NCBI GenBank assembly: GCA_003990765.1
Contig: RBNJ01000274.1
Coordinates: 1 to 34,476 of the forward strand
Reading direction: 5' to 3'
From: Jimgerdemannia flammicorona
Taxonomy: Eukaryota
Length of the DNA stretch: 34,476 nt
The translations under genes and the position numbers were made by a program. The notes under the pieces were generated by a model. The model did no database searches. It was not told the origin of the DNA and was given only the letters and a program-made list of their open reading frames with translations. Below are positions 4,405 through 31,829 of the stretch, one piece after another. Each line of letters begins with the position of its first letter. Positions within the stretch are counted from its first letter, which is position 1.

Positions 4405-4406
4405 CT

Positions 4407-4420
4407 TGATAGCAGTGGTG
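4407..4420 (+). other. Primer-binding site of element C, probably initiator tRNA-Met type
   Basis: TGATAGCAGTGGTG 2 nt after the LTR. D has TAGTAGCAGTGGTG (6112-6125). Consensus TGGTAGC resembles the complement of the tRNA-iMet 3' end (GCTACCA). tRNA identity is inferred. Confidence 0.6.
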
Positions 4421-4494
4421 TTGTTATATCTTACCTTATTAAGAAACCTCACACAAATCCAGAAACCAGTCACAACTAGTCACACAAATCTGAA

Positions 4495-5682: not shown

Positions 5683-6109
5683 TGTAACAATTTCACAGTC
5701 ATATTTGGTCTTAGGATATTTTTTGCATCTTTTAGCCAGCCTTTTCTTGTCATTTCTTGAACATTCTACTATGTTCTGGTATCTTCTACTTGCTTAGAAA
5801 CCTTCACTCAGCACCCAGACACTACTAGAATATTCTTATCTTTCCTTGGTACCAAGTATCTTGTCTCAGCTAATCATAGAACCTTTTGGAACATTGTAGA
5901 ATAGTATTAGTCAACTTTGTCAAGAACTTATTTCTTTGCATTTCTCTTTCTTTCCAAGATCCTTCTGGATCTTTCTTTCAGATCATATATAAATATCCTT
6001 GTTCTCTGTCTGAATAAAGCTCAGAATATTTTCTTCCAGAAATTCTTCAAGAATACCTGAATCTTTAAGTATCTCTTTGAGCTACTTTAGGCCAACTAGA
6101 ACTGTTATA
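5683..6109 (+). repeat. Element D 5' LTR (427 bp, 38-bp deletion near 3' end)
   Basis: Homologous to the other three C/D LTRs but lacks the segment between two AACTAGAAC direct repeats. Confidence 0.93.
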
Positions 6110-7171
6110 CTTAGTAGCAGTGGTGTTTTTACACTTTACCTTATTAAGAAACCTCACACAAATTCGGAAACTAGTTACAACTAGTCACATGAACCCGAAA
6201 TGAGTCATGAAGAGTCAGTCTACCAGCCAGACCCCTCTACTACAGAAGAAGTAGGAGAATTGCAGCTCAACATAGAAGATATGATCAATACTATAGCCCA
6301 CCAAATTCAAGAACTCCAAGTACAACTAGAACATCAGAAAATACAAACTATAAGAACATCACATCCTGTTATAACACCAATCAGTTTCAAGCCACTCAAG
6401 CTAGATATCTTTGATGGCCATTGAGGAGGACTATCTATAGATATATAAACCTTCCAATTGGATTAATACTTCAAGCTCACAAGAATGAAAGATGATATGT
6501 AAGTCCAATTTGCTGCCATACTTCTCTGAGGAAATACAGCCATCTAGTAATACAATTATATCATGGTTACATCTATATACTCATATACATAAATCAGAGA
6601 TTGAGAAGCCTTCAAAAGAGCCCTTCACAAGCAGTTCAAGTCTGCTAATATCACCAAGCTAGTCAGAGATAAGCTAGCAAATGTTGAGCAACTCAAGTCT
6701 GTGCAAAGCTATAATGCACAATTCTTGTCAATCCTACTTGAGCTACCAGCAGTATCCAAGGATGAAAAAATAGACCACTATATCCAAGATCTGAAGAGAA
6801 ACACATGAGTCTAGGTCAAGCTGAAAGAGCTCAAAACTCTTAATGAAGTCATGAGAATCACTGATAGATTTGATATTATCATCTTTGACAACCACTTCAA
6901 ACCAGAATGCTATAAAAAGAACTACTTTGAGAACCACCACAAAAACCAACCAAGGACAGTTGGCCCAGCACCAATGGACTTAGACACTATGAACAAAAAG
7001 AACACCAAGCTCACCCCTGAAGAAAAAGACTACTTGAAGAAATTCAGAGCTTATTTCTTCTGTCACCAAATAGGACACATTGCAACCAAATGTCCTAAGA
7101 AGACTAGCAAACCCTCAAGACCAGTCACTGTATTGTCCAAGGATACACCTGTTAATCTCACTACCAGTCAA

Positions 7172-7588
7172 CTTGAGCTCAAGGTCAAGAAGCTTCATCT
7201 GAAGGCCCAGGTCTCTCAATATCAAACAGAAGGAGCTATTGGTCTTGACCTACACTCAGTCAAACAAGTCACTATTCTAGCTAAGGGCCACACTCTAGTG
7301 CATACTGAAATTGCAGTCCAATGTCCTGAAGGACATTATATTAGAATTGCACCACAATCAGGACTCAGTGTCAAACATCATTTAGATGTAGACACTGGTG
7401 TTATTGACCCAGACTTTCAAGGACAAGTTTAAGTCTTGCTTGTCAACCAGAAGGATTAAGACTATATGATTAAAGAAGGAGACTGAGTTGCACAAATGAT
7501 CCTGGAAAAAGCCAGTCAACTCAAGATTATAGAAGTCCAAGAACTCCCTGAAACCAAATAAGATCAAAAGGGTTTTGGTAGTACTGAT
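7172..7588 (+). pseudogene. dUTPase domain of element D, between zinc knuckle and protease
   Basis: All five trimeric dUTPase motifs recognisable: GAIGLDL, PQSGLS (RSG), TGVIDPDFQG, G D * VAQMI, DQKGFGSTD. Confidence 0.92.
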
Positions 7589-10500
7589 TAAGCAGTAAGT
7601 TATAGTGAAAATCAAGCTCAAGCTATGCTCATTTTCAAAGGCCTAGTCAAAGGAAAAGAAGTTCAAGTACTCATAGACAGTGGAGTTGCAGAGAACTTCA
7701 TCAATCAGAATCTCATCAAAAACCTCAAGATCCTCATCAAGCCTGCACCCAAGAACAATAGTATAGTTACTGCAGATAGTACTCTGCACCCCATTGAGTC
7801 AATTGCCACCAAACTGCCCATCAAGATTCAGAAATATTGGGAATGAGTTGACTTCAAGGTTGCACTACTAGGAGATCATAACCTGATCTTAGAAAAACCC
7901 TGACTTACAAAACACAATCCAGACATTGATTGGTGCAAGAATGAAGTCACTCTACTTCAAGATGGAGTCAAAATTATGATCAAGACAGACAAGACCATGA
8001 GCAAGACCCAGATTGCAACACTGTCAGCTATATAGTATAAGAAAGTACTCAAGAAGGCAATGTATACCTTTGTTGTAATGATCTACCCCAAGAAACAAAA
8101 CAAGAGACTATCAGTTAATGAAAGCATCAAGCTACTGCTAGAAGAATTCAAGGATGTCTTTTCAGACAAACTAATGGGTCTACCACCTACATAAGAAGTT
8201 GATCATGGAATTGAACTGACCCCAGGAGCTGTACCACCCAAGAAATACATATACTGCATATCACCACTCGAAATTGAAGTAGTCAAGAAAGAACTAGAAG
8301 AACTACTTATATAAAGAGACATCCAGCCAAGCAAATCTCCTTATGGTTCACCAGTCTTATTTATCAAGAAAAAGGATGGTACCTTGTGAATATGCATAGA
8401 CTATCATGCACTCAACAAACTCACTGTTAAGAACTACTATCTGCTACCCTTAATTGATCAAATCTTTGATGCTCTCAAGAATGCCAAGTACTTCACCAAG
8501 TTAGACCTCATGTCAAGATACCATCAGATTCGAATCAAGCCAGAAGACATTCCCAAGACTGCATTCATGACTGCCTTTGGACTCTATAAATTCCTGGTCT
8601 TAGCATTTAGTCTCACCAATGTACCCACCACATTCCAGACTCTGATGAATAAGATATTTAAGAACTAACTATTTATTTTCCTATTGATATATCTTAACAA
8701 CATCCTGATCTTTAGTACAACTAAAGAAGAACACCTCAAACACATTCAAATAGTCCTAGAGATCCTGTGAAAACACAAGCTTTATATCAAGCTCAAGAAG
8801 TGTGAATTCTTCAAGAAACAAGTTGAATATCTTGGCTACATTGTCTCTGTACAAGGAATTCAAGTAGACCCATATAAGATAGAAGCAATTGAAGAATGTC
8901 CCATTCTGTCAAATCTCACAGAACTCTGATCCTTCCTTGGTCTAGCTGGCTATTACTGCTACTTTGTCAGAAACTTCTCTGGTATTGCTGAGCCACTGAC
9001 TAACCTCATGAGGAAGGTCCTGCACTCAGACCACTATATACCCTATACTTGGGACCTCTTCTGTCAACAAGCTTTTCAAGAACTCAAGAACTGCCTAACC
9101 CATACTCTAGTCCTGTATAATGCAGATCAAGGTCTAAAATTCATAGTCACCACTGATGTATCAAATTTTACCATTAGAGTAGTCCTGTCACAAGATGATG
9201 GCAAAGGACATCATTCTATTACTTTTAAGTCCTACAAGCTGGCCCCAGCTGAGCTACTCATGAGAAGGAACTACTAGCAATAATATATACACTAGACCAC
9301 TGACAATACTATCTAGAAGGTATTGAGTTTGATGTCATTACTGATCATCAATCTTTTAAGTATATCAATACTCAACCTACTCTGTAATGTCTACAAGCCA
9401 AGTGGAGCCTCAAGCTTCAAACCTTCAACCCGACAATCATCTACAAGCCCAGCAAGACACTTGTAGTACTAGATGTCTTATCAAGGTGCCCAGACCTCAC
9501 TACAATCATGCAAGTCACCTTGGCATCAGAATTCCTAGACCAAATTAAGCAAGCTTATAAAGAAGACACAGTTGCCACTAGAGTTTTCTTGAATGAACTC
9601 AAGGATACATATACTGTTGAGAACAATCTGATCTATCATCAAGATCAAGTCTACCTACCTGAAAACATGAACCTACACTACAAGGTTTTGTAAGAACACT
9701 ATGACTCCCCTCTTACCAGTTATCTGGGAATTGAGAAGACTATTAAGAACATCCAACACCACTACTATTGGCCAAACATGATCAAGGAAATCAAGAACTA
9801 TATTGCCAGCTGTGATCTATATTAGCACAACAAGTCTACCAACCAAGCACCTATCAGTTTGCTATAACCACTGCCAATTCCTATCAAGAAGTTCGAGCAA
9901 TTTACTATGGACTTTATAACTCAACTACCATAAACTCAATCTGGTGCTGATGCTATCATCATATTTATTAACTGCCTGACCAAGACTATAGTTGCTAAAC
10001 CAACCACTACCAATGCTACTACACCTGAGATTGCAAGAATCTTCTTCAAGTCCATCTTCTATCACTATGGTCTACCATAAGTAATTGTTAGTAATTGCGA
10101 CCCCAAGTTCACCAGCCACTTCTGGCAAACCCTCTTTAAGACTCTGGGAACTCAATTGGCTATGTTTACTGCCTTTCACCCACAAACTGATGGACAAACT
10201 GAGTACATAGACAGAACTCTAGAACAAATTCTTAGAAACTATATTTCTTATAAGCAAGATAATTAGGACATCTACCTGACTTATGTAGAGTTTGTATACA
10301 ACAATGCTGTCCAATCATCTACTGGTCTTTCCTCTTTCCAGTTACTCCATAGTCAAGATCCCAAGACCCCTGCAAGTCTATTCTCTTTCAAGAAAACCAG
10401 TCAAATACAAGTCCCAATGATCAAGAACCTTACAGACAAAATAGACAAACTACTTAAGATTGCTACCACAAACCTTCAGAAGGCTCAACAGCATCAAGCC

Positions 10501-10785
10501 AAGTATACTGACAAGAAATGCCATGATGTTACTTATACTATTGGAGATCAAGTCCTACTGTCTACTGAGAACCTCAAGATACAATCTCAAGTCAACTGCC
10601 CTTCAAATAAGTTCCAACTCAAGTATATTGGACCTTTCAAGATTACTGAATAAGTCTCTGCTTCCTCCTACCACCTCAAGCTGCCTGAAACCATAAGAGT
10701 ATACCCAGTCTTTTATATGTCACACCTCAAGACCTGGAACCAGTCACCACCCTACTCTGATTGAATTTCTAAGCCTTCTACTCCT

Positions 10786-10983
10786 GTGATTATTGAAGAC
10801 CATATTGAGTATAAAGCTGAGAAAATTCTTGACAAACGAATCCACTACCACTGTCCTGAATACCTAGTCAAGTGGATGGGTTATCCTGAATATAATGTTA
10901 CCTGGGAACCACTGGTCAATCTCAAAAACTCTCAAGATCTAGTTCAAGAATTTGAGGCAAAATACATTGCCCAATCTCTATAG
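10786..10983 (+). pseudogene. Integrase-terminal chromodomain of element D (C copy at ~15146-15342)
   Basis: EYKAEKILDKR...EYLVKWMGYPEYNVTWEPLVNLKNSQDLVQEF matches the chromodomain consensus, including aromatic-cage residues. Confidence 0.92.
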
Positions 10984-11284
10984 TGACTTTCTTGGATTGT
11001 TGATAACCTATAGCAATAACCAGTATCTTATGTATCAGAAGTTTACTTTGGGACACCGGAACCAGTAGAACATTTAATGAATAAGAAGTCTACCAAAATG
11101 AAGCTACTAGCTAGGTTCAAACCCCTCCCAGTTGATTAGTCTGATAATAGGCCCTCTGCTCTATATGAGGATGGCCAATTCCCACCAATATGCCAATTCA
11201 AGTTTGAGAAATTTTGGTTAAGTATATCTAGTCTTGTATTACCTAAGAACTCAATGAGGATATTGGTTCTTAAGAAGGAAGAGA

Positions 11285-11749
11285 TGTAATAATTTTACAG
11301 TTATATTTAGTCTTAGTATATTTTTTGTATCTTTTAGTCAGCCTTTTCTTATTATTTCTTAAACATTCTACTATATTCTAGTATCTTCTACTTACTTAGA
11401 AACCTTCTCTCAGTGCCCAGACACTACTAGAACATTCTTATCTTTTCTTGGTACCAAGTATCTTATCTCAGCTAGTCATGGAACCTTTCAGAACATTGTA
11501 GAATAGTATTAGTCAGCTTTGCTGAGAACCTATTTCTTGGCATTTCTCTTTCTTTCCAAGATCCTTCTAGATCTTTCTTTCAGATCATATATAAATATCC
11601 TTGTTCTCTATCTGAATAAAGCTCAGAATATTTTCTCTCAGAAATCCTTCAGGAACACCTGAACCTTTAAGTATCTCTTTGAGCTACTTTAGGCTAACTA
11701 GAACTTCCAGATTTAGCCACTTTCTCTTAAAGAAACTAGAACTGTTACA
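11285..11749 (+). repeat. Element D 3' LTR (465 bp)
   Basis: TGTAAT...GTTACA termini, preceded by PPT AAGAAGGAAGAGA. Confidence 0.95.
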
Positions 11750-11754
11750 TAGGT

Positions 11755-14700
11755 ACTGGTATCATTGACTCAGATTTTTAAGGGTAAGTTCAAGTTCTAC
11801 TTATCAACTAGAAGGATCAAGACTACACAGTTAAGGAAGGAGACCAAGTCATACAAATGATCCTAGAAAAAGCCAGTCAACTCAAGATTACAGAAGTTCA
11901 AGAACTCTCTGAAACCAAACAAGATCAAAAGGGTTTTGGCAGCACTGATCAAGTAGCAAGTCTTAGTGAAAATTAAGCTCAAGTTATGCTCATTTTTAAA
12001 GGCCTAGTTAAAGGAAAAGAAGTTCAAGTACTCATAGCCAGCAGAGCTGCAGAGAACTTCATCAATCAGAATCTCATTGAAAGCCTTAAGATTCTCACTA
12101 AGCCTGTACCCAAGAACAATAGTATAGTCACTACAGATGGTACTCTATAACCCATTAGTCAATTGCTGCCAAACTGCCTATCAAGATTCAGAAATATTGG
12201 GAATGAGTAGACTTTGAGATTACACTACTAGAAGATCATGATCTGATCTTAGAAAAACCCTGGCTTACAAAACACAACCCAGATATTGATTGGTGTAAGA
12301 ATGAAGTCACCTTACTTCAAGATGGAGCCAACATTATGATCAAGACAGACAAGACTACAAGTAAGATCCAGATTGCAACACTGTCAGCTATATAGTACAA
12401 GAAAGTACTCAAGAAGATAATACATGCCTTTATTGTAATGATCTATTCCAAGAAACAAGACAAGAGACTATCAGTCAATGAAAGCATCAAGCTACTACTA
12501 GAAAAATTCAAGGATGTCTTTTCAGACAAGCTATCTGGTCTACCACCTATATAAGAAGTTAATCATAAAATTAAACTGACTCCAAGAGCTGTACCACTCA
12601 AAAAACACATATACTGTATGTCACTACTCAAAATTGAAGTAGTCAAGAAGAAACTAGAAGAACTACTTATACAAGGAGCCATTCAGTCAAGTAAATCTCC
12701 TTATAGCTCACCAGTCTTATTCATTAAGAAGAAGGATAGTACCCTGTAAATGTACATAGACTATCATATACTCAACAAACTCACTGTCAAGAACTGCTAT
12801 CTACTATCCTTAATTGATCAAATCTTTGATACTCTCAAGAATGCCAAGTACTTCATTAAGCTAGACCTTATGTCAGGATACTACTAGATTTGAATCAAGC
12901 CAGAAGACATTCCCAAGACTGCATTTATAACCTCCTTTGGACTTTACAAATTCCTGGTCTTAGCATTTGATCTCACCAATGCACCCACTACATTTCAGAA
13001 CCTAATAAATAAGATATTCAAGGACTAACTATTTCTTTTCCTATTGGTATATCTTGATGATATTCTGATTTTTAGTACAACTAAAGAAGAATACCTCAAA
13101 TATATTTGAATAATTCTGAAGATTCAGTGAAAACACAAGCTTTATACCAAGCTCAAGAAGTGTGAATTTTTTAAGAAATAATTCAAATATTTTGACCACA
13201 TTGTCTCTACATAAGAGATTCAAGTAGACCCATACAAGATAGAAGCAATTGAAGAATAGACCATTCCATCAAACCTCATAGAACTCCAATCCTTCCTTGG
13301 TCTAGCTAGCTATTACTACTGCTTTGTCAGAAACTTCTCTAGCATTGCTGAGCCACTGACCAACCTCATGAGGAAGACTCTACACTCAGACCACTATATA
13401 TCCTATATCTGAGACCTCTTCTATCAACAAGCCTTTCAAGAACTCAAGAACTGTCTGACCCATGCTCCAGTCCTGCATAATGCAGATCAAGACCTAAAAT
13501 TCACAATCACCACTAATGTGTCAAATTTTACCATTAGAGCAGTTCTGTCATAAGATGATGGCAAAGAACATTACTCTATTGCTTTTGAGTCCTATAAGCT
13601 GGCCCTAGCTGAACAAAAGCTAGCCACTCATGAGATGGAACTACTAGTAATAATATATACACTAGACCACTGGCAATGCTATCTAGAAGATATTGAGTTT
13701 GATGCTATTACTGATCATCAATCTCTCAAGTACATTAACACCCAATCTACTCTGTCATGTTTACAAGCCAAGTAGAGCCTCAAGCTTCAAACCTTCAATC
13801 TGATGATCATCTACAAGCCTGGTAAGACACTTGTAGTACCAGATGTCTTATCAAGATATCCAGACCTCACCACAATCATATAGGTCACCTTGGCATCAGA
13901 ATTCTTAGACCAGATCAGATAAGCTTATAAAGAAGATACAGTTGCCACTAGAGTTTTCTTGAATAAGCTCAAGGATACATATACTGTTGAGAACAACCTG
14001 ATCTACTATCAAGATTAAGTCTATCTATCTGAAAACATAAATCTATACTATAAGGTTTTGCAAGAACACTATGACTCCCCTCTTGTCAGTTACCTGGGAA
14101 TTGAGAAGACTGTCAAGAACATCCAACACTACTACTATTGGCCAAATATGGTCAAGGAAATCAAGAACTATATTGTCAGCTGTAATCTATATCAGTGCAA
14201 CAAGTCTACCAACTAAGTTTGCTATAACTATTACTAATTTCTATCAAGAAGTTCGAGTAAGTTACCATGGACTTTATAACTCAACTACCACAAACTCAAT
14301 CTGGTGATGATGCTATCATCATATTTGTTGACCACTAGACCAAGACTATAGTTACTGAACCAACCACTACCAATGCTACTATACCCAAGATTGCAAGAAT
14401 CTTCTTCAAGTCCATCTTCTGTCACTATGGTCTACTATGAGTAATTGTCAGTGATCATAACCCCAAGTTCACCAGTTACTTCTGGTAAACCCTCTTCAAG
14501 ACTCTGGGAATTCAATTGGCTATGTCTACTATCTTTCATCTACAAACTGATAGACAAACTGAGCATATGAACAGAACTTTAGAACAAATGCTCAGAAACT
14601 ATGTTTCTTACAAGCAAGATAATTAGAACCACTATCTGACTTATATAGAGTTTGTATATAACAATGCTATCCAATCATCTACTGGTCTTTCCCCTTTTCA

Positions 14701-15342
14701 GTTACTCCACAGTCAAGATCCTGAGATCTCTGCAAGTCTATTTTCTTTTAAGAAAAGCAGTCAAATACAAGTTCCAACTACTAAGAACCTTACAGACAAA
14801 ATGGATGAACTACTCAAGATTGTTACTGTGAATCTTCAGAAGACTCAACAGCATCAAACCAAGTATGCTGACAAGAAACACCATAATGTCACTTACACTA
14901 TTAAAGATCAATCCTACTGTCTACTGAGAACCTCAAGATATAATCTCAAGTTAACTGCCCTTCAAACAAGTTCCAATCCAAGTATATTGGACCTTTTGAG
15001 ATTACTGAACAAGTCTCTGCATTCTCCTATCACCTCAAGCTACCTGAAATAATGAGAGTATATCCAGTCTTTCTTGTATCACACCTTAAGACCTGGAACT
15101 AGTCACCACTCTACCTTAGTTGAATTTCTAAGCCTTCTGCTCCTGTGATTATTGAAGATCATATCAAGTATGAAGCTGAGAAGATTCTTGACAAACAAAT
15201 CCACCACTGCCATCCTGAATATCTAGTTAAGTAAATGGGTTACTCTGAATATGATGCTACCTGGGAACCACTGGTCAATCTTAAGAACTCTCAAGATCTA
15301 GTTCAAGATTTCAAGACAAAATGTATTATCCAATCTCTATAG
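11755..15342 (+). pseudogene. Element C remainder: C-terminal dUTPase, protease, RT, RNase H, integrase, chromodomain
   Basis: Collinear nucleotide homologue of D 7394-10983, with YLDD near 13049-13060. Many stops and small indels. Confidence 0.92.
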
Positions 15343-15647
15343 TGACTTTCTTGGATTGTTGATGACCTATGGTAAAGACCAGTGTCTTATACATTAGAAG
15401 TTTACTTTGGGACCCCAGAACCAGCAGAATATTTAATAAATAAGAAGTCTACTAAAATGAAGTTATGTACTAGCTGAGTTTGAACCCCTCTCAGTTAGTT
15501 AGTCTAATAATAGGTTCTCTGCCCTATACAAGGATGGCCAATCTCTGCCAATGTGCCAATATAAGTTTGAGAAATTTTGGTTAAGTATATTTAGTCTTAT
15601 GTTATCTAAGAACTCAATAAGGACATTGGTTCTTAAGGAGAGAGGGA

Positions 15648-16111
15648 TATAACAATTTCACTATCATATTTAGTCTTAGTATATTTTCACATCTTTTAGT
15701 TAGTCTTTTCTTATCATTTCTTTAATATTCTACTATGTTCCACCACCTTCTACTTGCTTAGAAACCTCCTCTCAGTACCCAGATACTACTAGAACATTTT
15801 TATCTTTCCTTAGTATTAAGTATCTTGGCTTAGCTAGCCATGGAACCTTTCAGAACATTGTAGAATAGTATTAATCAGCTTTGTCAAGAATCCATTTTTT
15901 GGTATTTCTCTTTCTTTTCAAGATCCTTCCAGATCTTTCTTTCAGATCATATATAAATATCCTTGTTCTCTATCTGAATAAAGCTCAGAATATTTTCTTC
16001 CAGAAATCCTTCAAGAACACTTGAACCTTTAAGTATCTCTTCAAGCTATTTTAGATCAACTAGAACTTTCAGATTTAGCTGCTTCCTCTTAAAGAAACTA
16101 GAACCATTACA
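15648..16111 (+). repeat. Element C 3' LTR (464 bp)
   Basis: TATAAC (TG>TA)...ATTACA termini, PPT AAGGAGAGAGGGA at 15635-15647, followed by TSD ATATC. Confidence 0.95.
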
Positions 16112-19739: not shown

Positions 19740-21066
19740 AATTTAAAAAACTTCAATATATTGCTAATTCTAATGATAAAGAAGAAGCAGAACTACTAAA
19801 GATAGATTTATATGAGAAAGATGATAATTTTAGTATACCAAATAGTAATACTGATAATATTAATCAAACTTCTAAAGATGAGTATGTTCTAAATTCAACT
19901 TTATATTAGATTAGTAAGTTGAATAGATATAGTATTTCTGAGATATTATAGAAAAATGAAAAAAATTTATCAAAGAGATTAACTGGATATATATTATTCT
20001 TAAAGAACTATAATTATTTAATATTCTATATAGATAAGGACATCTTTCTATAAAACTCTCTGATGAGCTTCTTTATAAATTTGCAAATAACAATTTGACT
20101 ATAAAGGAGAAACTTATTCAGTTTTAGAATATATAGCAAATATATAAGATTCTTGATATAGCTATAAGTACTAATATAGTAAATATTTGAGTTATATATA
20201 ATATATAAAGAAAGATTTATAGAGTTTAATCTACATTTATTTATAAGAATTTCAAATTAAAAAGTCATAAGTATGAAAGTTGGAGAGGTCCTATAATACT
20301 ATATTATTATAATATGATTGCTCTGATACAGAATATAATAAGTAATTCAATATTTAAAACTATATATCATTTACTATAGTATACTATTTCAAAAAGAAAG
20401 ATATTTACTGATATAGTGAAATTCACTAAAGTATATTCTGATGGGAAATATAGGTAAGTAAATAGTTTTAAGATTATATATTAAAATTCTAGAGCTAAAT
20501 AAAGTAAGTAATATTATATTTCTAAAACAATTTTGAAGCTAGTATAATAATCATTTCCATTCTTCTTAAAATAGATAAAATATATATCAATCTTCTAGGA
20601 TGAACAAAAATGTATTCTCTTTATATAATAATTGACAACATATACAAAAGAATCTAAAAAAAATATTCAAGAAATACATATTAAGTTCTTGCATACTTTT
20701 CTATATTAGAGAGTACTAAAATTGAATAAGAACAGTCTGTATTCAGACTTGCAAAATAGAATCTATATCACCTTTATATGATGGAATATTTAAAACTAAT
20801 TAATTTAAATATCTCACTTTTAACTATTCTTCAATTATTTTTATAGAGTATATATTATAAAGAGATCTGATAGTAAGCTCTAGAACTACTATCCTGTCTT
20901 ATTTTTAATAGTTATAAACTATCCTGAATTATGCTTATTAGTACTAGTATATTCTAAAATAGTTTGCTCAATATACATTATACCTCAGGAGAAATTTGAT
21001 AATTTATCTTCAATATTTGCATTTTAGGATCCTATTTTAATATTGAGAGCAATTCATGATATGTAT
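19740..21066 (+). pseudogene. Plavaka-type DNA transposase, N-terminal and central part (decayed)
   Basis: Manual translation: YYYNMIALIQNIISNSIF; IIISILLKIDKIYINLLG*TKMYSLYIIIDNIYKRI*KKYS..VLAYF..AK*NLYHLYM; SDSKL*NYYPVLFLIVINYPELCLL..CSIY. These follow the order of Plavaka motifs as I recall them (PIILxSDKT..PxYLTIGNI..ADYPEQCL..CPxC). Start coordinate is approximate. Confidence 0.75.
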
Positions 21067-21625
21067 TGTTATGTAGTGGTCACTGAGTCCTTCAAATATG
21101 CCAGATTCTCTTCAAGGTATATCTCTTAGACTAACTCAAGTTTGTTATAAGCAAATTCTTATTAAAGTACCTTTCCAAGGTCTTATAGTTCTCAAACTTC
21201 TTATTTTTAACTATCTTGTTATCTCTTAGATTGCTTGTAAGGAAGTATATATATTGCACTAAGAAGACTATATTATATACATTGTCATATAGTGAATATT
21301 GAGTCTTTCAAATACATCAGATTCTCTTCAAGATATATCTCTTAGACTAACTACAAGTTTGTTATAAGTAAGTTCTTATTGGAGTGCCTTCCCAAGATCT
21401 TATAGTCCTCAAAATTCTTATCTTTAAACTGTCTTATTATCTCTTAGATTGCTTGCAAGAAAGTGTATATATTGTACTGAGAGAAACTAACTTCATTTTA
21501 GAGGAAATAAGAGGGGTGTTTATACAAAATATAATTCAATGGTTGCTAAGATATAAAGCTAAATATAAATTCTAATAACTAAAACTACAAAGTTCCAGGG
21601 TTGGCACTGATAGTTGTACAGATTC

Positions 21626-21826
21626 AGGATGCTGGTATAATTCAGTATCACATCAGAATACTGGTGCTGGAACAATTTCACATTATCTCAGAATGCCAGT
21701 GCTGGTATTATCCAGTGTTACATCAAAATACCAGTACTGGAACAATTTTGCATCACCTCAGAATGCCAGTGCTGACATTATCCAGTGTTATATCAAAATT
21801 CCAGTGCTGGCATTATTCAGTGTAAC
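21626..21826. repeat. 35-bp tandem array (~6 units) in B 3' LTR
   Basis: Units start at 21626, 21661, 21696, 21731, 21766 and 21801 with core CCAGTGCTGG. Confidence 0.9.
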
Positions 21827-21833
21827 AAAGAAC

Positions 21834-22621
21834 TTAGAGCAGAAAGTTCAGGACCATGGGGGCTTCAACCTCATCATTACTGAAGGAGATGAGATCTGCG
21901 AATTCATCATTTTCATGTGCTTCGATGTTGCACAGGATGACATCATTGCTGATGATGTCATCATGTTTGGCAGGAAAATTGGGGGCTCTCCAATCTATGA
22001 GATTCTCTTCCACAAAATAAGGAACAAATGTGGGGTCTTGGGGAGGTCTAACCTGGATGCTTGGGCCTTGGAATACTGAGATCAATCCTTGTAAGAATTG
22101 ATCTGAGTTGTCCTGAAGGATGGAATACCAGAAGTCTTCTACTTCATCACTATTGAGAGTGATAGTGGACTGGGCTTCTGTAGCTACCCTGGCTTCTAGT
22201 GCATTGATACAGTGGGATGACAGGTCTCTGAAGTCTGAGACTCTAACATACTCCAAGTTGGGATCAACCATGGTGCATGCCTGAAGATCTGATGGATCTT
22301 CTTAGCTGTTCTTATCTCATATATATTCATAGGAGTGACATCTTATAGTTCTTGAGGGCTAGCCTGTGGGAACTCCCAGCAGAGGAGGTTTCCTATTTTA
22401 TACTCCTGCCACATTTGGAGGCATTCAGTAGCAATGGTGATCCTTGTTTCCATTTCATGGTAGTAGAGGATAAAGTGATAGAGATCTGCAGTACTCAGGT
22501 TGCCACTAGGAGTCCTTCTTAAGTGGGTTCTCATGGCTCTTCTGATGTCTTGGAATATCCTTTTCTCAACTGAGATGCCTTAGTGATTCCTTGACCTTGA
22601 GGTTTGGTGGGCAGCAGGCAT
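21834..22621 (-). pseudogene. LTR-embedded accessory ORF, B 3' LTR copy (stops plus a 1-bp deletion)
   Basis: ORF-track pieces 22343-22534 and 21834-22271 match the 5' LTR copy. ATG at 22621. Confidence 0.8.
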
Positions 22622-23177
22622 TTTATTTGTAGTAAGTCTTTGAGCTATTTTGGGATTAGTGGGTCTTGTTGGTTGCTGCTACTGTAGTTCCTTGATCCTT
22701 CTTTTATATTCCTCAAGATACTCATACTGTGGCCACAATGACTCACAGTTGGTCATCATTGCTCATCTCATATGCTGTATGATCTCCTTGTGCTCTGATC
22801 TGGTGACTTGTGAGGAAAGGCTGTTTCCTATGCTGATGTCATCATTCTGAGATCACTGTTACATCTTTTTCCTGAATAAGGATCTTCTTGATCATCCTTA
22901 TTCATTGGTCTAGTCCTGAAAAATTTGCTGATCCCATAACCTCTAACAAGGGGTTGAAAAGTGGTATTTATGGGCTGGCATCTTCCCTTTATATTTTGGT
23001 ATGATGGTGAAGAGTCGCTCCCTTTATATAGAGCAAGGGCCTGATTCTGATCTTGACCAATCAGTTGATGGTTCAAACTTCTTTGACTTCAAAAGTCTCA
23101 TAGATGAGTAGTTGCCAGTGCCATATCTCTTAGAGAATGGTCCAGACAGATAGCCTGCTAGTCATAGGACATGTTGT

Positions 23178-24424
23178 TATAATTCACAGACTAGAACCTT
23201 GTGGGTGGTCATCACATTTTACTTCTCTTGTATAGATTCATAGTACTTCTTGAGTTCCTATATACTATAGTAGGCAGTATGGTCCCTGAGATTTTTCTAA
23301 GCCAGAAGGTGGTTCCCTTGATATCTTATATATAGAAGGGTCCTTCCCATTTGGGCTCCAGTTTTCGTAACCATGAGGCTTCTACTATATTTCGATACAG
23401 TAGAACCTTTTCTTCAATTCAGATGAGTTCTAGGGCCTTGTGATTCTTTTCCACATTCTTCCTTATTAGTACTTGTGACTTGGTGATATAATCTTTAGCC
23501 TTCTTCCTGATTTGGTGTACATAGTCTCCGGATTTCTATATCAACCCATCTCCAGATTAGGTCTAGATTTGTGGCTGAGGTTCCATCAGAATCTTCTTCT
23601 CCAAAGAGCAGCTCTCTTGGGATAAAGTGTGTGCTCTGTGACTATATGTCTCATAGGATAGAGAGGGCAGTTGGGAGATAGTTATCCCAATTCTCATATA
23701 TCTCTGATATTTTCACTAGAATGTTCTTGAGGGTCTTGTTGGTTCTCTCTGTCTGTCCATTTCCTTGAGGGTAGTATACAGTGGTCTTGATGTACTGGAT
23801 CTTATATTTCTGATATATTATCTTGTGGAATCTATTGACAAATTCCATGCTGTGGTCTGTTGTGATTTGCTTTGGTGTCTTGTAGTAGCAGATGATTTCT
23901 CGGTGCAGAGAGTTAGCTATAGAGAGGACATTGGCTTCTTGTAATACTCCTGCCTCTATCCATTTGGTGAAGAGGTCTACAATAACTATAATATAGCAGT
24001 TTTCTGATAGTGTTACTGGTAGTGGCCCAATGATATCCATTGCAATGTGGTGGAAGGAGATAGGCTTAATTCTTGATGACCTGGGTGCCTGGTCTTGCTG
24101 ATCTTGTTTCTGTTTTTGGCACTTGTTACACCCTTTGACAAATTGGTATAGGTCTTCTTCTATCTTGGGCCACTATATAGTTCTTCTTACTTTGTCATAT
24201 ATATTGGTTCCTCCTAAGTATCCTTGCTCATGTACTTCCTTCATTACTTGATACTTCTTGTGTTTGGATATTACTAGCTTTCCTTCTTTTCTGAGTGTAG
24301 TATTGTCTAGTTCAAACTGTTTCCAAGTCTGGTTGATGATGGTGATTGTCCAGAGTTTAAAGTAGTTGGGAATCTTCCACTGCCCAAGATAGCTGATTAA
24401 TCCATAGTATAGCTCCTTATTCAT
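23178..24424 (-). pseudogene. Integrase of element B
   Basis: MNKELYYGLISYLG; H..GYLG..CNKC; MDIIGPLP, VDLFTKW, ITTDHSMEF, PQGNGQTERTNKTLK; KLEPKWEGPFYI (GPY/F). No chromodomain. Confidence 0.92.
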
Positions 24425-27400
24425 GTTGAATGGTCTTGATGGGGGTGTTTTGGGGTGTCCTTGAGAGTGCATCGGCATTGGTGTTGGTCTTTCCTGAGTG
24501 GTGCTTGATAGTGCAGTCATACTCTTGCAGCCTGTAGATCTATCTGATATATATTCCTTTGGGGTTCAGAGTGTGGAATAGCCAGGCAAGAGCAGAATGG
24601 TCTGTTTGAATGGTGAAGTGTTTTCTGGCTAGGTAGTAGTGGAACTTGTCTACTGCCCAAACTACTGCTAAGTATTCAAGCTTGTATGACTCGTAGTTCT
24701 GTTCTGCTCCACAGATATCTCGGCTTATGTTATTCATGTTCATCTTTCTTCTAAACTAGGACTGCTCCAAGTTCTATAGCACTTGCATCTGTCTGCAGGA
24801 TGAATCCTAGGTTCCAGTCTGGTCTTCAGAGGATAGGTGCTTGGGTCAACCTAGTCTTGAGTTCATTGAAGGTTTCTTGGTGCTCCTTGGTCCATTCGAA
24901 TTTGGTTTCCTTCTTCAGTAGCTCATAGATAGGTGCTGCAATATTGGAGTATCCTTTGATGAACCTTTTGTAGTAGCTGGCCAGTCCAAGGAAGGCATGG
25001 ACTTCTGTGGTTGTTCTGGGTCTTGGGTAGGCTGCAACAGCCTCAATCTTTATGGGGTCTGTGTGGATTCCAGTCTGGTTGATGAGGTGTCCTAGATAGG
25101 CAATTTCTTGAGCTGCAAACTTGTATTTCTTGGGCTTGATATAGAGGCCATGCTCCTTGAGCTTCTTGAGGACTAGCTGTATGTAATTGATATGTTCCCA
25201 TGCAGTGTTGCTGAAGATGATCACATCACAAAGAGCTATTTTCCAATCTTATTGCTGAAGACTCTATTCATCATTTGCTGGAAACTTGCTGGGGCATTGT
25301 ACATTCCAAATGGCATTTGCAGGTAGATATAGGTGGCATCAGGTGTGATGAAGGCTAATTTCTCACTGGCATCTTGAGGGAGACCAATCTGATGGAAGCC
25401 TGAGAACAGATCCAAGGTAGTGTAGTATTTGGCTTCACTTCCAAGAGTGGTAAGGATTTCTTGAATATTTGGCAAGGGCTGCCTATCCTTCTTGGTGATG
25501 GCATTGAGCTTCCTGTAGTCAATACAGAGTCTTAGTACAAACTCTCCAGGTTTGCTTCCTTTCTTCAGGACAAGGACAATGGGTTAGGCCCAGGGGCTGA
25601 TAGCTTGCTTGATGATTCTGGCTTCTTCCATTTCCTTGAGTTCTGCTTGCAGCCACTCTCTGTAGGCAGGTGGTATGGGTCTGGCTTTCTGGTAGATAGG
25701 CTTAGTATCACCAGTGTCAACTTCATGGTAATACTTGGGTTCTTGATTGTGGATATCCCTAAAGTCTATAGCATGTACTCCTTTATTCTGATGCAGGATC
25801 TTGAGAAGTTGTTCATCCAGGGGAAAGTTTTCTCCAATAGTATATGTGTGCTTATTCTGGTCCTTATCTTTCTTGTGCTCAAGTTTAGTAATCTTGGTAG
25901 TGGCATAGGCTCCTCTTCCAGTAGATCTAAAGCCTTGTTCTCCTCTCTTGGTCTTGATGAGTTTGATGGCTTCTATGATATTGGACTTCTTGACTTCATA
26001 AATCAGCATCTGGCCAATCCTGTCATGCTTCTTAACTTCGAAGGGGGTGGTGTGGTTGTGATTTCTGACTATGAGGAAGATCTCACCAGTGTAATCAGAG
26101 TCAATTACTCCTCCTTCAAATGAGATTTCACTTTTGGCCAGACTGCTCCTGGTCTTGATAATTCCGGCATGGTTTTCTGGCAGCTTGACTCCAATTCCAG
26201 TGCCAAGTAGGGTGGTGATCTGTGGTTTGAGGATAGCATCTTGAATGCTGGCAAGGTCCATTCCAATGACTCCTTTAGTCTTGTATTCTGGGATCTTGGC
26301 TTCAGGGTGAAACTTCTTAACCTTGAGGGTAATGTCTGATTCTTGTTCCTCCTCATCATCACTATCAGCTTGAAGCTCTGGGGGCTGGTCATCTTCTTTA
26401 GCTTTCCTTTTTGCTTTGGCAGCTTCTTGCTCATGAGGTATCCCCCAGTACCAGTATCAATGATGGCATTAAAGATATAGTCTTCGATCTGACATGGAGT
26501 ATAGGCTGATGTCTTGTGCTGGTCTTCAGATTCTTTACCTGAGTTCTCAGATTCTTCCTGTGCATTGTGAGCTTCTACAATCTTGTACTCTTGATTCTTG
26601 GCAGTAGTTGCAAGTTCTACTCTCAACTGCTGTCTGAAGGCAGAGACTTCAGCTAGTTGTCCAAAAGTAGCATTGACCTTCTGTTCCTTAAGGTCCTTGT
26701 AGATGTCATACTGGTAGATCTTGGTCTTGTGCAGCTTCTGTTCCTTCTTGCTTTCACTTTCTCCTGAGACTAGAGTAGTGCCTTCAATGATTTGTCAGAC
26801 AGCTTCATCTAACTCTATGTCTTGATCAATCTCCTTGGGTTGGGTCTTGCTTTGAATAGTGATAGCTGGGGTCTTCTTTGGTCTTCCAACTGGCTTGCCA
26901 TTGCTCTTCTTATCATAGGGCTTGGACTGGGTTCTGGTATCTTCAGTAGTAGGGTAGAATTCAAGCTCCTCATAGTATTCTTCATCATCAGTGTCACTAA
27001 TCTCCTCGATGACTACTGCATTGGTTTGTTCTCTGGTTCTGCTAGCATTGCTTTGTTGGGCTTTGTATCTTGTTTTGGTTATGCAACTCTTTGCATAGTG
27101 GCCTTCTTCTCCACATCTGAAGCATGTGATATTGCATTCTTCTGTAGTAGCTGCAAATCTCTGCACTGGTCTCCTGTTGGCACTTCAGACTTCTCTAACA
27201 ACATCACCAAGGTATGCAGTTATCTTGGTAAACTGCTTGGCAAGTTCTTCTACTAGATCAGCATTGACTGTCTTGGGGATAGGTGAGGTTGGTTGTCTGT
27301 TTATAACTGTGGTGGGTAAGATACTAGTTGGCTTTGATGGCTCCATCTTGATGCCAGTTATTTTCTCCATTGAGTGTTTGACAGAGTGTCTGGCAGTCTA

Positions 27401-27886
27401 ATATCTCTGTGCAAAGACCACTTTCTGATCAAGGGTCAGCACAGCTGGGGTAGACTGGATTGCTAGGGCAATTTCAGAGTAAACTCCTTTGAGGAAGGTT
27501 AAATCTGCTATTTGTTCCTTGAGGTGGTCATCATAGCTAGCCAAGATAATCTGGTGACAGATTTAGATATAGAATAAGTTGGGATCTTCACTAAGTCCCT
27601 GGCAGATAGTATTGAGTTAATCCTTGAGAGCTTGCTTGATCTCTTCTGTATAATATGTTGTTCTGAGAAAGACTTTCATATTGACAAGTTTGGCTGCACC
27701 AGTATCAGTAATGGTAGCTGTATTGAACTTGTCTCTGGCAGGTCCTCTGAGGCTAACTAGTAGAAGAGCTAATTGAGCATCCATACCAAGGGCTCATATG
27801 GCAGTAAATTGTTCAAAGTCTTCAATGAAGGTCAGGATTAACTATTCAGTAGTATATCTATAGAATGTAGAGGGGCACATTTCCAT
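24417..27886 (-). pseudogene. Element B gag-pol: Gag, CCHC knuckle, truncated protease, dUTPase, RT, RNase H
   Basis: ATG 27886; CFRCGEEGHYAKSC; AIIDTGTG; dUTPase in ORF 25584-26261; YYTTLDLFSGFHQI, MPFGMYNAPASFQ, FLGLASYY; ILQTDAS, QTDHSAL, NADALSR. Confidence 0.93.
25915..26330 (-). pseudogene. dUTPase domain of element B, between protease and RT
   Basis: LKVKKFHPEAKIPEYKTKGVIGMDL, KTRSSLAK, GGVIDSDYTGEI, DRIGQML, RGEQGFRSTG correspond to motifs I-V. Confidence 0.92.
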
Positions 27887-27985
27887 CTTATCTTAAATTC
27901 TTGCAGGGGTGACTCTTATAGTCAGGGTAGTTATTGTAGGGGTTGTTTGTTTTTCAGCTTAAAAGTGAGGGATTCATCTTGAATC

Positions 27986-28003
27986 ACCAGCCAATGGGCA
28001 CCA
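27986..28003 (-). other. Primer-binding site of element B (shared with A family)
   Basis: TGGTGCCCATTGGCTGGT 3 nt from the LTR end. The TGG start is complementary to tRNA CCA. tRNA species not assigned. Confidence 0.75.
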
Positions 28004-28431
28004 AGTTGTCACATAGTACTTGCTGAGTTCTTCAAATATGCCAGATTCTCTTCAAGATATATCTCTCAGACTAACTCAAGTTTGTTATAAGCAAGTCCTT
28101 ATTGGAGTGCCTTCCCAAGGTCTTATAGTCCTCAAACTTCTTATCTTTAACTATCTTGTTATCTCTTAGATTACTTGCAAGGAAGTGTGTGTATTGTACT
28201 AAGAAGACTATGTTATATACATTGTCATATAGTAGGCATTGAGTCCTTCAAATATATCAGATTCTCTTCAAGGTATATCTCTTAGACTAACTATAAGTTT
28301 GTTATAAGCAAGTTCTTATTGAAGTGCCTTTCCAAGATCTTATAGTCCTCAAACTTCTTATCTTTAAACTGTCTTGTAATCTCTTAGATTGCTTGCAAGG
28401 AAGTGTATGTATTGCACTGAGAGACACTGAC

Positions 28432-28464
28432 TTTATTTCAGAGGAAATAAGAGGGGTATTTATA
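28432..28464 (-). promoter_or_regulatory. Candidate LTR TATA box and polyadenylation signal of element B
   Basis: Minus-strand TATAAATA (28457-28464), pyrimidine tract, then AATAAA (28432-28437). The same arrangement occurs in the A and C LTRs. Confidence 0.65.
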
Positions 28465-28565
28465 CAAAATATAATTCAATAGTTATTAAGATATAAAGCT
28501 AAATATAAATTCCAATAACTAAAACTACTAAGTTCCAGGATCAGCACTGATGGTTGTACAGGTTC

Positions 28566-28766
28566 AGGATGCTGGTATAATTCAGTGTCATATCAGAATA
28601 CTGGTGCTGGAACAATTTCACATTATCTCAGAATGCCAGTGCTGGCATTATCTAGTGTTACATCAAAATACCAGTGCTGGAACAATTTCACATTACCTCA
28701 GAATGCCAGTGCTGGCATTATCCAGTGTTACATCAAAATACCAGTGCTGGCATTATTCAGTATAAC
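28566..28766. repeat. 35-bp tandem array (~6 units) in B 5' LTR
   Basis: Units start at 28566, 28601, 28636, 28671, 28706 and 28741, with two largely alternating variants. Confidence 0.9.
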
Positions 28767-28773
28767 AAAGAAC

Positions 28774-29562
28774 TTAGAGCAGAAAGTTCAGGACCATGGG
28801 GGCTTCATCCTTATCATTACTGAAGGAGATGAGATCCCAAAATTCATCATTTTCATATGCTTCGATATTGTGCAGGATGACATCATTGCCAATGATGTCA
28901 TTACATTCAGTGGGGAAATCAGGGGCTCTCCAATCTATGAGGTTCTCTTCCACAAAATAAGAAACAAATGTGGGGTCTTGGGAAGGTCTAACCTGGATGC
29001 TTGGGCCTTAGAATACTGAGATCAATTCTTGCAGGAATTGGTCTGGGTTGTCCTGAAGGATGGAATGCCAGAAGTCTTCTACTTCATCACTATTGAGGGT
29101 AATAGTGGACTGGGCTTCTGTAGCTACCCTGGCTTCTAGTGTATTGATACAGTGGGATAACAGATCTCTGAAGTCTGAGATTCTAATATACTCCAAGTTG
29201 GAGATTGACCATGGTGCATACCTGAAGATCTGATGGATCTTCTTAGCCATTCTTGCCTTACATATATCCATGGGAGTGGTATCTTGTAGTTCTTGAGGGC
29301 TAGCCTGTGGGAACTCCTGGCAGAGGAGGTTTCCTATTTTATACTCCTGCTACATTTGGAGACATTCGGTAGTAATGGTGATCCTTGTTTCCATTTCACA
29401 GTGATAGAGAATAAAGTGATAGGGATCTGCAGTACCTAGATTGATACTAGGAGTCCTTCTTGAGTGGGTTCTCATGGCTCTTCTGATGTCTTGGAACATC
29501 CTTTCCTCGACTGAGATACCTTGGTGATTCCTTGACCTTGAGGTTTGGCAGGCAGCAGACAT
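28774..29562 (-). pseudogene. LTR-embedded accessory ORF (262 codons), B 5' LTR copy, unknown function
   Basis: 789 nt in a single frame. The internal stops at 29350 (TAG) and 29008 (TAA) are TGG and CAA in the 3' LTR copy. Confidence 0.85.
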
Positions 29563-29808
29563 TTCATTTGTAGTAAGTCTTTGAGCTATTTTGGGATTGG
29601 TGGGTCTTATTGGTTGCTGCTACTGCAATTTCTTGATCCTTCTTTTATATTCCTCAAGATACTCATACTGTGGTCACAATGACTCACAGTTAGTCATCAT
29701 TGCTCATCTCATATGCTGTATGATCTTCTTGTGCTCTGATCTGGTGGCTTGTGAGGAAAGACTGTTTCCTGTGCTGATGTCATCATTCTGAGGTCACTAT
29801 TACAGTAT

Positions 29809-30312: not shown

Positions 30313-31829
30313 TGTCATATAGTAGATACTAAGTTCTCCAAGTATATCAGATTCTCTTCAAGATATATCTCTTAGACTAACTATAAGTTTCTTATAAGTA
30401 AGTTCTATTAGAGTGCCTTTCTAAGGTCTTATAGTTCTCAAACTTCTTATCTTTAAACTGTTCTATTGTCTCTTAAATTTGCTTGCTTAGAATTGAGTAG
30501 AGGACTAGAACTTCTGTACTTGAGTAGTTGGATACTTGAATGCTTGAGTATTTTAATACTAACTTTATTTCAAAGAAAATAAGAGAGATATTTATATAAA
30601 ATGTAATTCAATGATTGCTAAATTATAAAACTAAATATAAATCTCAATAACTAAATAAATAAGGTACTTGAACACAGAAAACAAATTTGAGTACTCATAT
30701 AAATGATTATATAAGATCAGAATACTAGAATAATTTCAGCAGTTATATAAGAACTTAAAGCAGAATGTTCAGAATCCTGGGAACTTTATCTTTATCACTA
30801 TCATTAAGGCTAGAGATTGAGATATTTTCAAAAGAGATAAGGTTAGTAAATATTTCTATATATATCCTATCTGTTTTACATATTTTACATGTTTTATATA
30901 TTTTGTATATTTCACACATATTGATTAACAGGATGATGATATCACTGATGACATCATCATGTTCAATAGTAGTGGAGGGAGTAAGGAGATCAGGAGTTCT
31001 CCAATCTATAACATTTTCCTCTATAAAGTAGGAGACAAAGGTGGAATCTTGAGGGGGTCTAATCTGGATACTGGGGCTTTAGAATACTGAGATTAATCCT
31101 TGCAGGAATTGATCTAGATTGTTCTTTTCAGAACTCTTCTACCTTATCACTTTTGAGAGTAATGGTAGATTGAGCTTCTGTGGCCACTATAGCCTCTAGT
31201 ACATCTGTAAGTAGACTGACAAATTTCTTAAAGTCTGAGACTCTAGTATACTCTAAGTTAGAAATTGACTAAGGTATATGTCTAAAGATCTAATAGATCT
31301 TTTTGGCTACTCTTAATTCATATATATCTATAGGAGTAATATCTTATATCTCCTGGAGACTAGCCTAAAGAAATTCCCAGTAGAGGAGATTTCTTATTTT
31401 ATATTCCTGCCACATCTAGAGGCATTCAGTAGCAGTAGTAATCCTTGCCTCCATTTCATAACAGTTATCAGTATCCAAGTTAAGGCTAGGAATCCTTCTG
31501 GTGTAGGTCCTTATAGCTCTTTTGATGTCTTGAAATATCTTTTCTTAGACTAAAAATCCTTAGTAATTCCTGAACCTTAAGGTTTGATGAGTGGTAGGCA
31601 TTTGTTTATAGTGAGTCTTGTTTAAGTTACTGCTGCTATAGTTTCTTAGTCCTTCTTATATTCCTTGAGATATCTATCTTATGATCATCATAACTCATGA
31701 TTTGTCATCATTGCTCATCTTGTAGCTTAGGTGAGTTATGCTGTATGATCTTCTTATGCTCCAATCTGATGGCTTGTAAGAAAAGGCTATCTTCTGTGAT
31801 GATGTCACTATTCTAAGATCACTATTACA
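30313..31829 (-). mobile_element. Solo LTR of a B-related subfamily (1517 bp) carrying a diverged copy of the embedded ORF (30755-31601)
   Basis: TGTCAT...ATTACA termini, 4-bp TSD ATAT (30309-30312 and 31830-31833), no adjacent PBS or PPT. Translation retains ECL*MWQEYKI, AKKIY*IFRH, RVSDF, VATEAQSTITL. Confidence 0.9.

Follow-up and report, generated by a model that had tools for sequence, protein, structure and literature searches.

Genes that lie inside or overlap a long terminal repeat (LTR) are known from vertebrate retroviruses, namely sag of mouse mammary tumour virus (MMTV), nef and the bel genes of foamy viruses. LTRs are usually treated as non-coding control regions and are masked in annotation. 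In this study, we report a gene located within the LTRs of element B, a Ty3/Gypsy retrotransposon of Jimgerdemannia flammicorona (assembly GCA_003990765.1, contig RBNJ01000274.1). The whole stretch of DNA that was analysed, hereafter the window, is 34,476 nucleotides (nt) long, and all coordinates are forward-strand positions in it. The gene, referred to as the LTR gene, is found in both LTRs of B and in a diverged solo LTR of the window. We think it reasonably probable that it is a real accessory gene of this Ty3/Gypsy family, contained wholly within the LTR and having a 3'-terminal regulatory role. In the open-access and preprint literature, we found nothing on a non-retroviral LTR retrotransposon with a complete, selected gene in its LTR. 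Among the matches listed, the literature on an 'LTR ORF' (open reading frame) was mostly on MMTV, and two non-retroviral candidates meant ORFs between the LTRs.

Like the LTR gene, MMTV sag is a complete gene in sense orientation within the LTR, occurring at either end of the provirus and, in the genomic RNA, downstream of pol. However, MMTV is a vertebrate retrovirus, whereas B is a Ty3/Gypsy retrotransposon without env, and no sequence relation to the Sag family was found in Pfam or PDB. Sag is a membrane glycoprotein, while the product of the LTR gene is acidic and looks soluble; in addition, the U3 (unique 3') placement of the LTR gene is deduced from motifs. Lentiviral nef and foamy-virus tas/bel/bet resemble the LTR gene as 3'-terminal accessory genes of LTR retroelements, but they only overlap the LTR, whereas the LTR gene is wholly inside it, and no homology to them was found in Pfam or PDB. 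Foamy-virus Tas, a transactivator that has an internal promoter of its own and an acidic activation region, serves as the working model for the role proposed below. Nevertheless, the likeness to retroviral transactivators (Tas/Bel1, Tax, Tat) is one of composition only (the relative P0003 is acidic), without sequence relation.

The ORF3s of the bdelloid elements Juno, Vesta and TelKA and the extra ORFs of the plant elements Tat, Retand and Athila are lineage-specific additions, as the LTR gene is. As far as is known, such additional ORFs are placed internally, between pol and the 3' LTR, whereas the LTR gene has its ATG inside the LTR and a copy in a solo LTR. In the sections of two papers dealing with them, the extra ORFs of Ty3/Gypsy elements are lineage-specific, often of obscure function and in some cases expressed from spliced messages, dUTPase lineages included (PMC5408684; PMC2864245). 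According to excerpts from the work on Cer1, its protein CERV has 517 amino acids (aa), is encoded outside the LTR by a spliced mRNA of five exons shared in part with gag, has no homologues beyond a narrow host group and is needed in trans for the RNA of the element (PMC10309623). By description, CERV resembles the product of the LTR gene in being a novel protein with an accessory role in a Ty3/Gypsy element. The backbone of element B is similar to that of the fungal dUTPase-bearing Ty3/Gypsy elements (Postia placenta, Phanerochaete, Tuber), with the dUTPase between protease and reverse transcriptase (RT), an order given for PosPlaTy3-5 of Postia placenta in the passages concerned (PMC2864245). 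In the same passages, some elements are credited with an 'additional ORF with unknown function', for which no LTR placement is described (PMC2864245).

The LTR gene and its copies

The original prediction, made from the letters of the window, was of a complete protein-coding gene comprising a 262-codon sense frame in the ~1.8-kb LTRs of B. Such a frame is present (Table 1). In the 5' LTR it contains two internal stops, TAG at codon 71 and TAA at codon 185, and its translation shares 70% identity with the intact relative P0003 over 271 aa. The term complete has to be given up for the window, where none of the three copies is intact, and applies only to relatives elsewhere. As had been supposed from some of them, all four stops in the LTRs of B are sense codons in the opposite LTR (TAG/TGG and TAA/CAA one way, two TAA/CAA the other way). 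The solo LTR had been said to keep the start methionine together with a 21-nt in-frame indel and a separate frameshift, and this was borne out by deletions of 21 and 11 nt, respectively; the solo copy has in addition an in-frame insertion of 15 nt and eight stops. In a tblastn search with six relatives, the window gave three instances of the frame, one in each LTR, and none elsewhere. The tail of the solo copy (30860-30925, - strand) holds an AT-rich insertion coding for ...NMCEIYKIYKTCKICKTDRIYI..., which is missing in B and in all database relatives.

The gene belongs integrally to the LTR: it lies past the polypurine tract, in both LTRs of B and in a solo LTR with its own target duplication. 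Its ATG is located 242 nt into the LTR, downstream of the polypurine tract AGGAAAAAGA, which adjoins the 3' LTR. The two LTRs of B, 91% identical, are direct repeats with a spacing of 6940 nt, and the target duplication of 4 base pairs (bp), ATAC, is found on both sides of the element (29808..29805 and 21066..21063). The repeat at 31829..30313 is regarded as a solo LTR because it has its own duplication, ATAT, and no adjoining internal region. It is ~70-84% identical to the LTRs of B over the alignable parts and lacks both the 35/70-bp array and the second 217-bp unit of these. Parts of the LTR were present in contigs from ten runs of seven studies, eight labelled soil metagenome and two labelled with a coded organism name, and four runs were aligned to the LTR at a likeness of at least 80%. 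In 4 of 4 runs, the contigs leave the window sequence at 29804 and pass into the reverse complement of the pol end and polypurine tract of B (compared by eye); therefore, the LTR boundary upstream of the gene is fixed family-wide. Since reverse transcription copies the LTR, the gene stands at both ends of each insertion and is left in solo LTRs.

The gene does not extend pol, given that it has its own ATG inside the LTR and that an in-frame TAG stands 20 codons upstream of this. Read-through of pol into the LTR was ruled out by this stop and by the relatives, which start at the same methionine. The guanine plus cytosine (GC) content is 43.6% in the gene, 42.1% in the internal region of B and 34% in the non-coding LTR downstream. 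Both LTRs of B also hold a stop-free frame of 166 codons on the + strand (28519-29019 and 21579-22079), covering the 35/70-nt array and the antisense of the last ~80 codons of the gene; this frame probably results from the repeat and from the coding frame on the other strand.

Coding character and protein family

The frame has two internal stops; 5000 mononucleotide shuffles averaged 14.2, with 5 as the lowest count, and the other five frames of the same stretch have 9-23 stops each. Sites at which the LTRs of B agree and the solo LTR differs, which reflect divergence before the insertion of B plus the own decay of the solo copy, were distributed over codon positions 1/2/3 as 36/23/73 (chi-square p = 2e-7). 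The same count in flanking LTR DNA was 12/16/13 upstream of the frame and 22/23/25 downstream. The post-insertion differences between the two LTRs of B were 31/14/22, without third-position excess. The Nei-Gojobori ratio of non-synonymous to synonymous substitution (dN/dS) between B and the solo copy was 0.148 and 0.143 in frame, over 203 codons, against 0.72-1.35 in the two shifted frames; the value is rough because synonymous sites are near saturation, the contrast with the controls being nevertheless clear. Between the two LTRs of B, dN/dS was 0.46 in frame and not distinct from that of one shifted frame (0.43). Alignment columns >1025 were excluded from the codon-position and dN/dS counts because MAFFT misaligned the solo tail there; at the protein level, this tail is collinear with B.

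A ratio near 1 with frameshifting indels fixed between subfamilies had been named as the outcome that would speak against a gene. The ratio between subfamilies was instead 0.14-0.15, and no fixed frameshift was seen, each one being private to a decayed copy while intact relatives read through. Judged from these sequence comparisons, the frame is very probably a real gene that was under purifying selection during the divergence of the element lineages.

The metagenome contigs give a view of the family beyond the window. The pieces placed on the LTR numbered 2138, 468, 234 and 269 in the four runs, and therefore the host carries the family in many copies. Relative to the family majority, the window copy differs mostly by A>G and T>C (+ strand), with A/T in the window where the family has G/C. 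At position 29351, the majority letter changes the TAG of codon 71 to TGG (Trp). Among the best-supported differences listed in the gene, 13 of 20 are at third positions and 11 of 20 are synonymous (binomial p = 0.004). At least five of the nine listed non-synonymous differences (E179G, S167P, T141A, I128V and stop71W) go toward the residue of most aligned relatives. As regards the 12 indels listed out of 18, 11 fall in the non-coding stretch 28081-28425, and the only one of these in the gene is of 12 nt and in frame.

A word-indexed search returned four open relatives of 174-271 aa and 60-78% identity, all of them on short metagenome contigs. When a profile of six sequences was compared with 1.84 billion representatives, only five clusters were found, all of the same family: the close group, a fragment of 138 aa, and members of 214, 342 and 200 aa, with identities of 47, 40-42 and 28%, respectively. 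The overall size range of the open relatives is 138-342 aa. The start MPxxR is kept in both distant members that cover the N-terminus and, where covered, a core of KKIHQxFRHxPW ... LExxVAxExxSxI ... LQDNxDQxLQxL ... FxGPxI ... I.W is conserved. The tail is acidic in the distant members that reach it and varies by in-frame indels. EIFTNLISFE...LNILL is common to the solo copy and the relatives P0005 and P0008, and ...DLISF...LNFLL to B and the other relatives. Because of these shared tail motifs, both subfamilies of the window have open counterparts elsewhere, and the 11-nt frameshift of the solo copy is private to it. An informative product name was not found on any family member in the cluster look-ups. 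As for the DNA of the relatives on metagenome contigs, 261 pattern stretches matched and none was confirmed, and a degenerate 23-nt pattern from the best-conserved codons gave 0 stretches on these contigs. As far as database comparison goes, the gene belongs to a small new protein family without recognisable relatives.

Neither the window protein nor any of 10 relatives matched a Pfam family at or above its cut-off. A match to ATG5_HBR (E 0.024-0.088, best score 14.9 bits against a cut-off of 21.3, 3 of 10 members) was rejected. The search of PDB gave no sequence match, with 0 hits of the family profile at E <= 10, and in the ESM Atlas there was nothing above 0.83 by features, which is below lead level, or above a template modelling (TM) score of 0.33 by structure. 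A captured host gene or a fragment of another transposable element, the other outcome that had been named as unfavourable, found no match in Pfam, the PDB sequences or the 1.84 billion representatives. AlphaFold models from 6 and 10 sequences had a mean predicted local distance difference test (pLDDT) of 34.7 and 44.2, which is low confidence; they suggest helices from about residue 18 to 185 and two short strands, with the last ~60 residues largely lacking regular structure.

The N-terminus is arginine-rich and basic in most members. In P0003, the first 60 residues have a net charge of +8 and the six 30-residue blocks after residue 90 one of -25 (-22 over residues 121-270), with an overall isoelectric point of 4.5. 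The tail of P0010, the most distant full-length member, is also acidic, and its residues 240-300 repeat a motif three to four times (PDLINFS, PDLITFS, PDLDIWS, VLNFT). Taken together, the family comparisons suggest that the conserved features are a helical core and an acidic tail, probably disordered, with short acidic-hydrophobic motifs (DLISF, LNFLL). P0010, encoded on a contig of 4.8 kb, runs 45 residues beyond the usual C-terminus of the family. We agree with the original prediction that the function is not readable from the sequence.

Placement in the LTR and proposed role

The ORF had been described as lying upstream of a 35-bp array and of a TATA/AATAAA pair, with a TATA-like box of its own ~85 nt before the ATG. 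This layout was found again: the array and the pair both lie past the stop codon (28776..28774), and the box is TATAAAAG, at 87 nt. It is present in both LTRs of B, and the solo LTR reads TATAAG, with a 2-nt deletion. The first ~160 nt of the LTR hold TGACATCA as well as TGACTAA (29696..29690) and TGAGTCA (29686..29680), which by consensus we take to be AP-1/GCN4-like motifs of basic leucine zipper (bZIP) type. The TATAAATA/AATAAA pair is located 310-340 nt downstream of the gene, and the block that contains it is 80-81% identical between subfamilies. Contig joints skip 35, 101, 125 and 164-183 nt at the tandem array, and thus the copy number of the array varies in the family. Joints skipping 219-232 nt were also seen at the 217-nt units of B, the number of which therefore varies as well.

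From these positions, we lean towards a location of the gene in U3. TATAAATA would then be the genomic promoter and transcription would start at or just past AATAAA, so that the polyadenylation (poly(A)) signal would be complete only at the 3' end of the RNA and the terminal repeat region (R) would be short. With the gene in U3, it would be the 3'-terminal gene of the genomic RNA, and its expression would proceed through a subgenomic spliced RNA or start at the TATAAAAG box. A transcript from this box would end at the own poly(A) signal of the LTR, giving an mRNA of ~1.2 kb from any LTR, also a solo one. Speculatively, GACTAAC...CACAG at ~29695-29669 could provide a branch point and acceptor.

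The alternative that survives best locates the gene not in U3 but in R/U5 (U5, unique 5'): TATAAAAG would be the genomic promoter, the gene a leader cistron before gag, and TATA/AATAAA a poly(A) region only. Such an arrangement would fit the AP-1/GCN4-like motifs 31-47 nt upstream of TATAAAAG, the situation of this box within the first 160 nt of the LTR, a frequent site of LTR promoters, and the identity of 73-85% between subfamilies in the upstream part of the LTR. However, it needs an R of ~1.2 kb, which to our knowledge far exceeds known R regions, and every genomic RNA would carry an AATAAA 1.2 kb into it, to be ignored at the 5' end. Moreover, the conserved TATAAATA-27 nt-AATAAA pair (80-81%) suits a poly(A) signal at or before the start site, and it is the upstream box that has the 2-nt deletion in the solo copy. 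We consider the R/U5 location possible but unlikely.

If the U3 location is followed further, each LTR might be a self-contained cassette in which TATAAAAG, with its bZIP-like sites, drives the gene, and the transcript ends at the own poly(A) signal; the genomic promoter would stand just downstream and the genomic RNA would start past the signal. Solo LTRs would in this case keep making a trans-acting factor that serves or polices the family. This extension is put forward very tentatively. Were it true, the dose of the regulatory gene would rise in step with the LTR count of the genome, and the element would be an independently evolved retrotransposon counterpart of the accessory genes of complex retroviruses.

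With regard to its role, the gene appears to serve the element, because selection acted while the lineages replicated. The product might be a trans-acting regulator or adaptor of the expression or RNA handling of the element, like a retroviral transactivator or RNA-export factor. Such a regulatory or adaptor function is favoured from composition alone and is for this reason proposed with considerable doubt.

Several points weigh against the interpretation as an accessory gene with a 3'-terminal regulatory role. All three copies in the window are broken. The dN/dS values are drawn from three copies of one window, with a proportion of synonymous differences (pS) of about 0.6 and synonymous sites near saturation. 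The relatives are known from predicted proteins on metagenome contigs, hence without LTR context, and since gene callers report open frames only, their openness is partly ascertained. It is from motif positions that the gene is placed in U3 and that TATAAAAG is regarded as its promoter. Besides, the low-confidence fold supports no particular function, and in P0010 the net charge is +1 and 0 in the first two 30-residue blocks; because of this weak basic N-terminus, the reading of an arginine-rich motif is weakened.

A different service to the element would be its defence, either as a suppressor of host silencing (RNA interference, DNA methylation) or as an RNA-export factor of the Rev/CERV type. 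CpG is near absent (0.03-0.05), consistent with methylation-linked repeat decay and with pressure to evade silencing: its observed/expected ratio is 0.00-0.05 in all sub-regions and 0.03 over the whole window, including the stretches of 21-25% GC between the elements. Because this scarcity suggests that the host methylates repeats and lets them decay, counter-silencing would be plausible. The arginine-rich N-terminus of most members fits a defence role as well, and Cer1, also a Ty3/Gypsy element, needs a novel accessory protein for the export of its genomic RNA according to the excerpts cited above (PMC10309623). On the other hand, no domain, motif or fold was found in Pfam, PDB or the low-confidence models that would tie the protein to silencing or export, and the arginine-rich stretch is not kept in P0010. 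We regard defence of the element as doubtful; a role in silencing evasion or RNA export appears about as likely as one as regulator or adaptor.

It is improbable that the frame is a passenger, that is, a captured coding piece of the host or of another transposon without service to the element. The capture of foreign ORFs by LTR retrotransposons is described in the relevant passages of one source (PMC5408684), and in element C, whose pol is the nearest to that of B in the window (~50% identity), no trace is seen of the gene. A passenger would drift, and yet dN/dS between subfamilies is 0.14-0.15, and the frame, its start codon and its end are kept down to 28-42% identity, with no donor in the 1.84 billion representatives or in Pfam. 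That the frame is no gene at all, being open by chance or conserved as non-coding regulatory DNA, would agree with the stops in all window copies and is nonetheless extremely improbable in view of the third-position periodicity confined to the frame of the gene, the stop deficit with respect to shuffles, the distant open relatives with in-frame indels and the metagenome indels that avoid the frame.

If the LTR gene is indeed an accessory gene of the element, elements can hide coding capacity that standard annotation omits. The gene would be present at twice the copy number of the element and would outlast the deletion of the element in solo LTRs, which bears on dosage, trans-complementation and the afterlife of deleted elements. 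As a retrotransposon counterpart to sag, nef and bel, it would also bear on how complex retroviruses gain accessory genes, and, when discovered, the function of the protein could show a new means of host manipulation by an element.

Element B and neighbouring elements

The coordinates of the features are provided in Table 1. Element B belongs to Ty3/Gypsy by a zinc knuckle, after which pol runs as protease, RT, RNase H, then integrase, and by TG...CA LTRs with a short target-site duplication. Of its protease, a DTG motif within the frame 26105-26794 is all that is visible, without Pfam match. An open relative of its dUTPase-RT region exists, with 514 aa and 89% identity. A primer-binding-like stretch starting with TGG is located 3 nt past the 5' LTR; no tRNA was matched to it, and no tRNA gene was found in the window.

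Table 1. Location of the features of element B, the LTR gene, the solo LTR and element C in the window.
Feature	Coordinates	Strand	Description
Element B	21067..29804	-	Full-length but decayed Ty3/Gypsy retrotransposon; direct repeats, Pfam on internal frames
5' LTR of B	28007..29804	-	TG...CA, 1798 nt
3' LTR of B	21067..22863	-	TG...CA, 1797 nt; polypurine tract AGGAAAAAGA just before
LTR gene, 5' LTR copy	28774..29562 (reads 29562..28774)	-	262 codons and terminal TAA; no frameshift
LTR gene, 3' LTR copy	21834..22621	-	2 stops and a 1-nt deletion near 22260
LTR gene, solo-LTR copy	30755..31601	-	Same start Met, same C-terminal ...LISF...LNILL end
Solo LTR	30313..31829	-	Diverged subfamily; own 4-bp duplication ATAT
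TATAAAAG	29649..29642	-	Candidate promoter box, 87 nt upstream of ATG
Tandem array	28570..28761	-	35-nt unit, 70-nt higher-order unit, ~2.6 x 70; between gene stop and downstream TATA box
TATAAATA, then after 27 nt AATAAA	28464..28457; 28437..28432	-	Candidate genomic promoter and polyadenylation signal
217-nt unit x1.9	28033..28454	-	Presumed U5 of B (~420 nt); solo LTR (30313-30655) has one unit
gag-pol of B	23651..27184	-	Decayed; Pfam on internal frames
Zinc knuckle of B (zf-CCHC)	26795..27184	-	Pfam
dUTPase of B	within 25584..26456	-	Between protease and RT; Pfam, E = 1.8e-26
RT of B (RVT_1)	24826..25583 (matches 25236-25583, 24826-25248)	-	Pfam
RNase H of B (RT_RNaseH)	24540..24755	-	Pfam
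Integrase of B (rve)	23651..24172	-	Pfam
Element C, parts	16971-16093 and 3946-2135	-	LTR-like repeats at 782, 18822, 33248

An excess of TpG/CpA was limited to element B (1.18/1.33). Repeat-induced point mutation was ruled out as the cause of decay, since the 28 C-to-T changes of the window copy relative to the family majority are followed by A in 10 cases, C in 9, T in 6 and G in 3, and are not specific to CpA.

Element C is a dUTPase-bearing Gypsy element with 46-59% identity to the pol of B. Given that tblastn revealed no trace of the LTR gene in it, the gene is a gain of the lineage of B. Element C seems to have been split by the insertion of element A. The latter is also a dUTPase-bearing Gypsy element, 29-41% identical to the pol of B, and appears as a tandem or nested array at 3943-16000 (+ strand). 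A repeat of at least 300 nt occurs in it at 3943, 5686, 11288 and 15650, and an internal stretch of ~3.5 kb (7389-10852) recurs 4360 nt further on, at 11750-15211.

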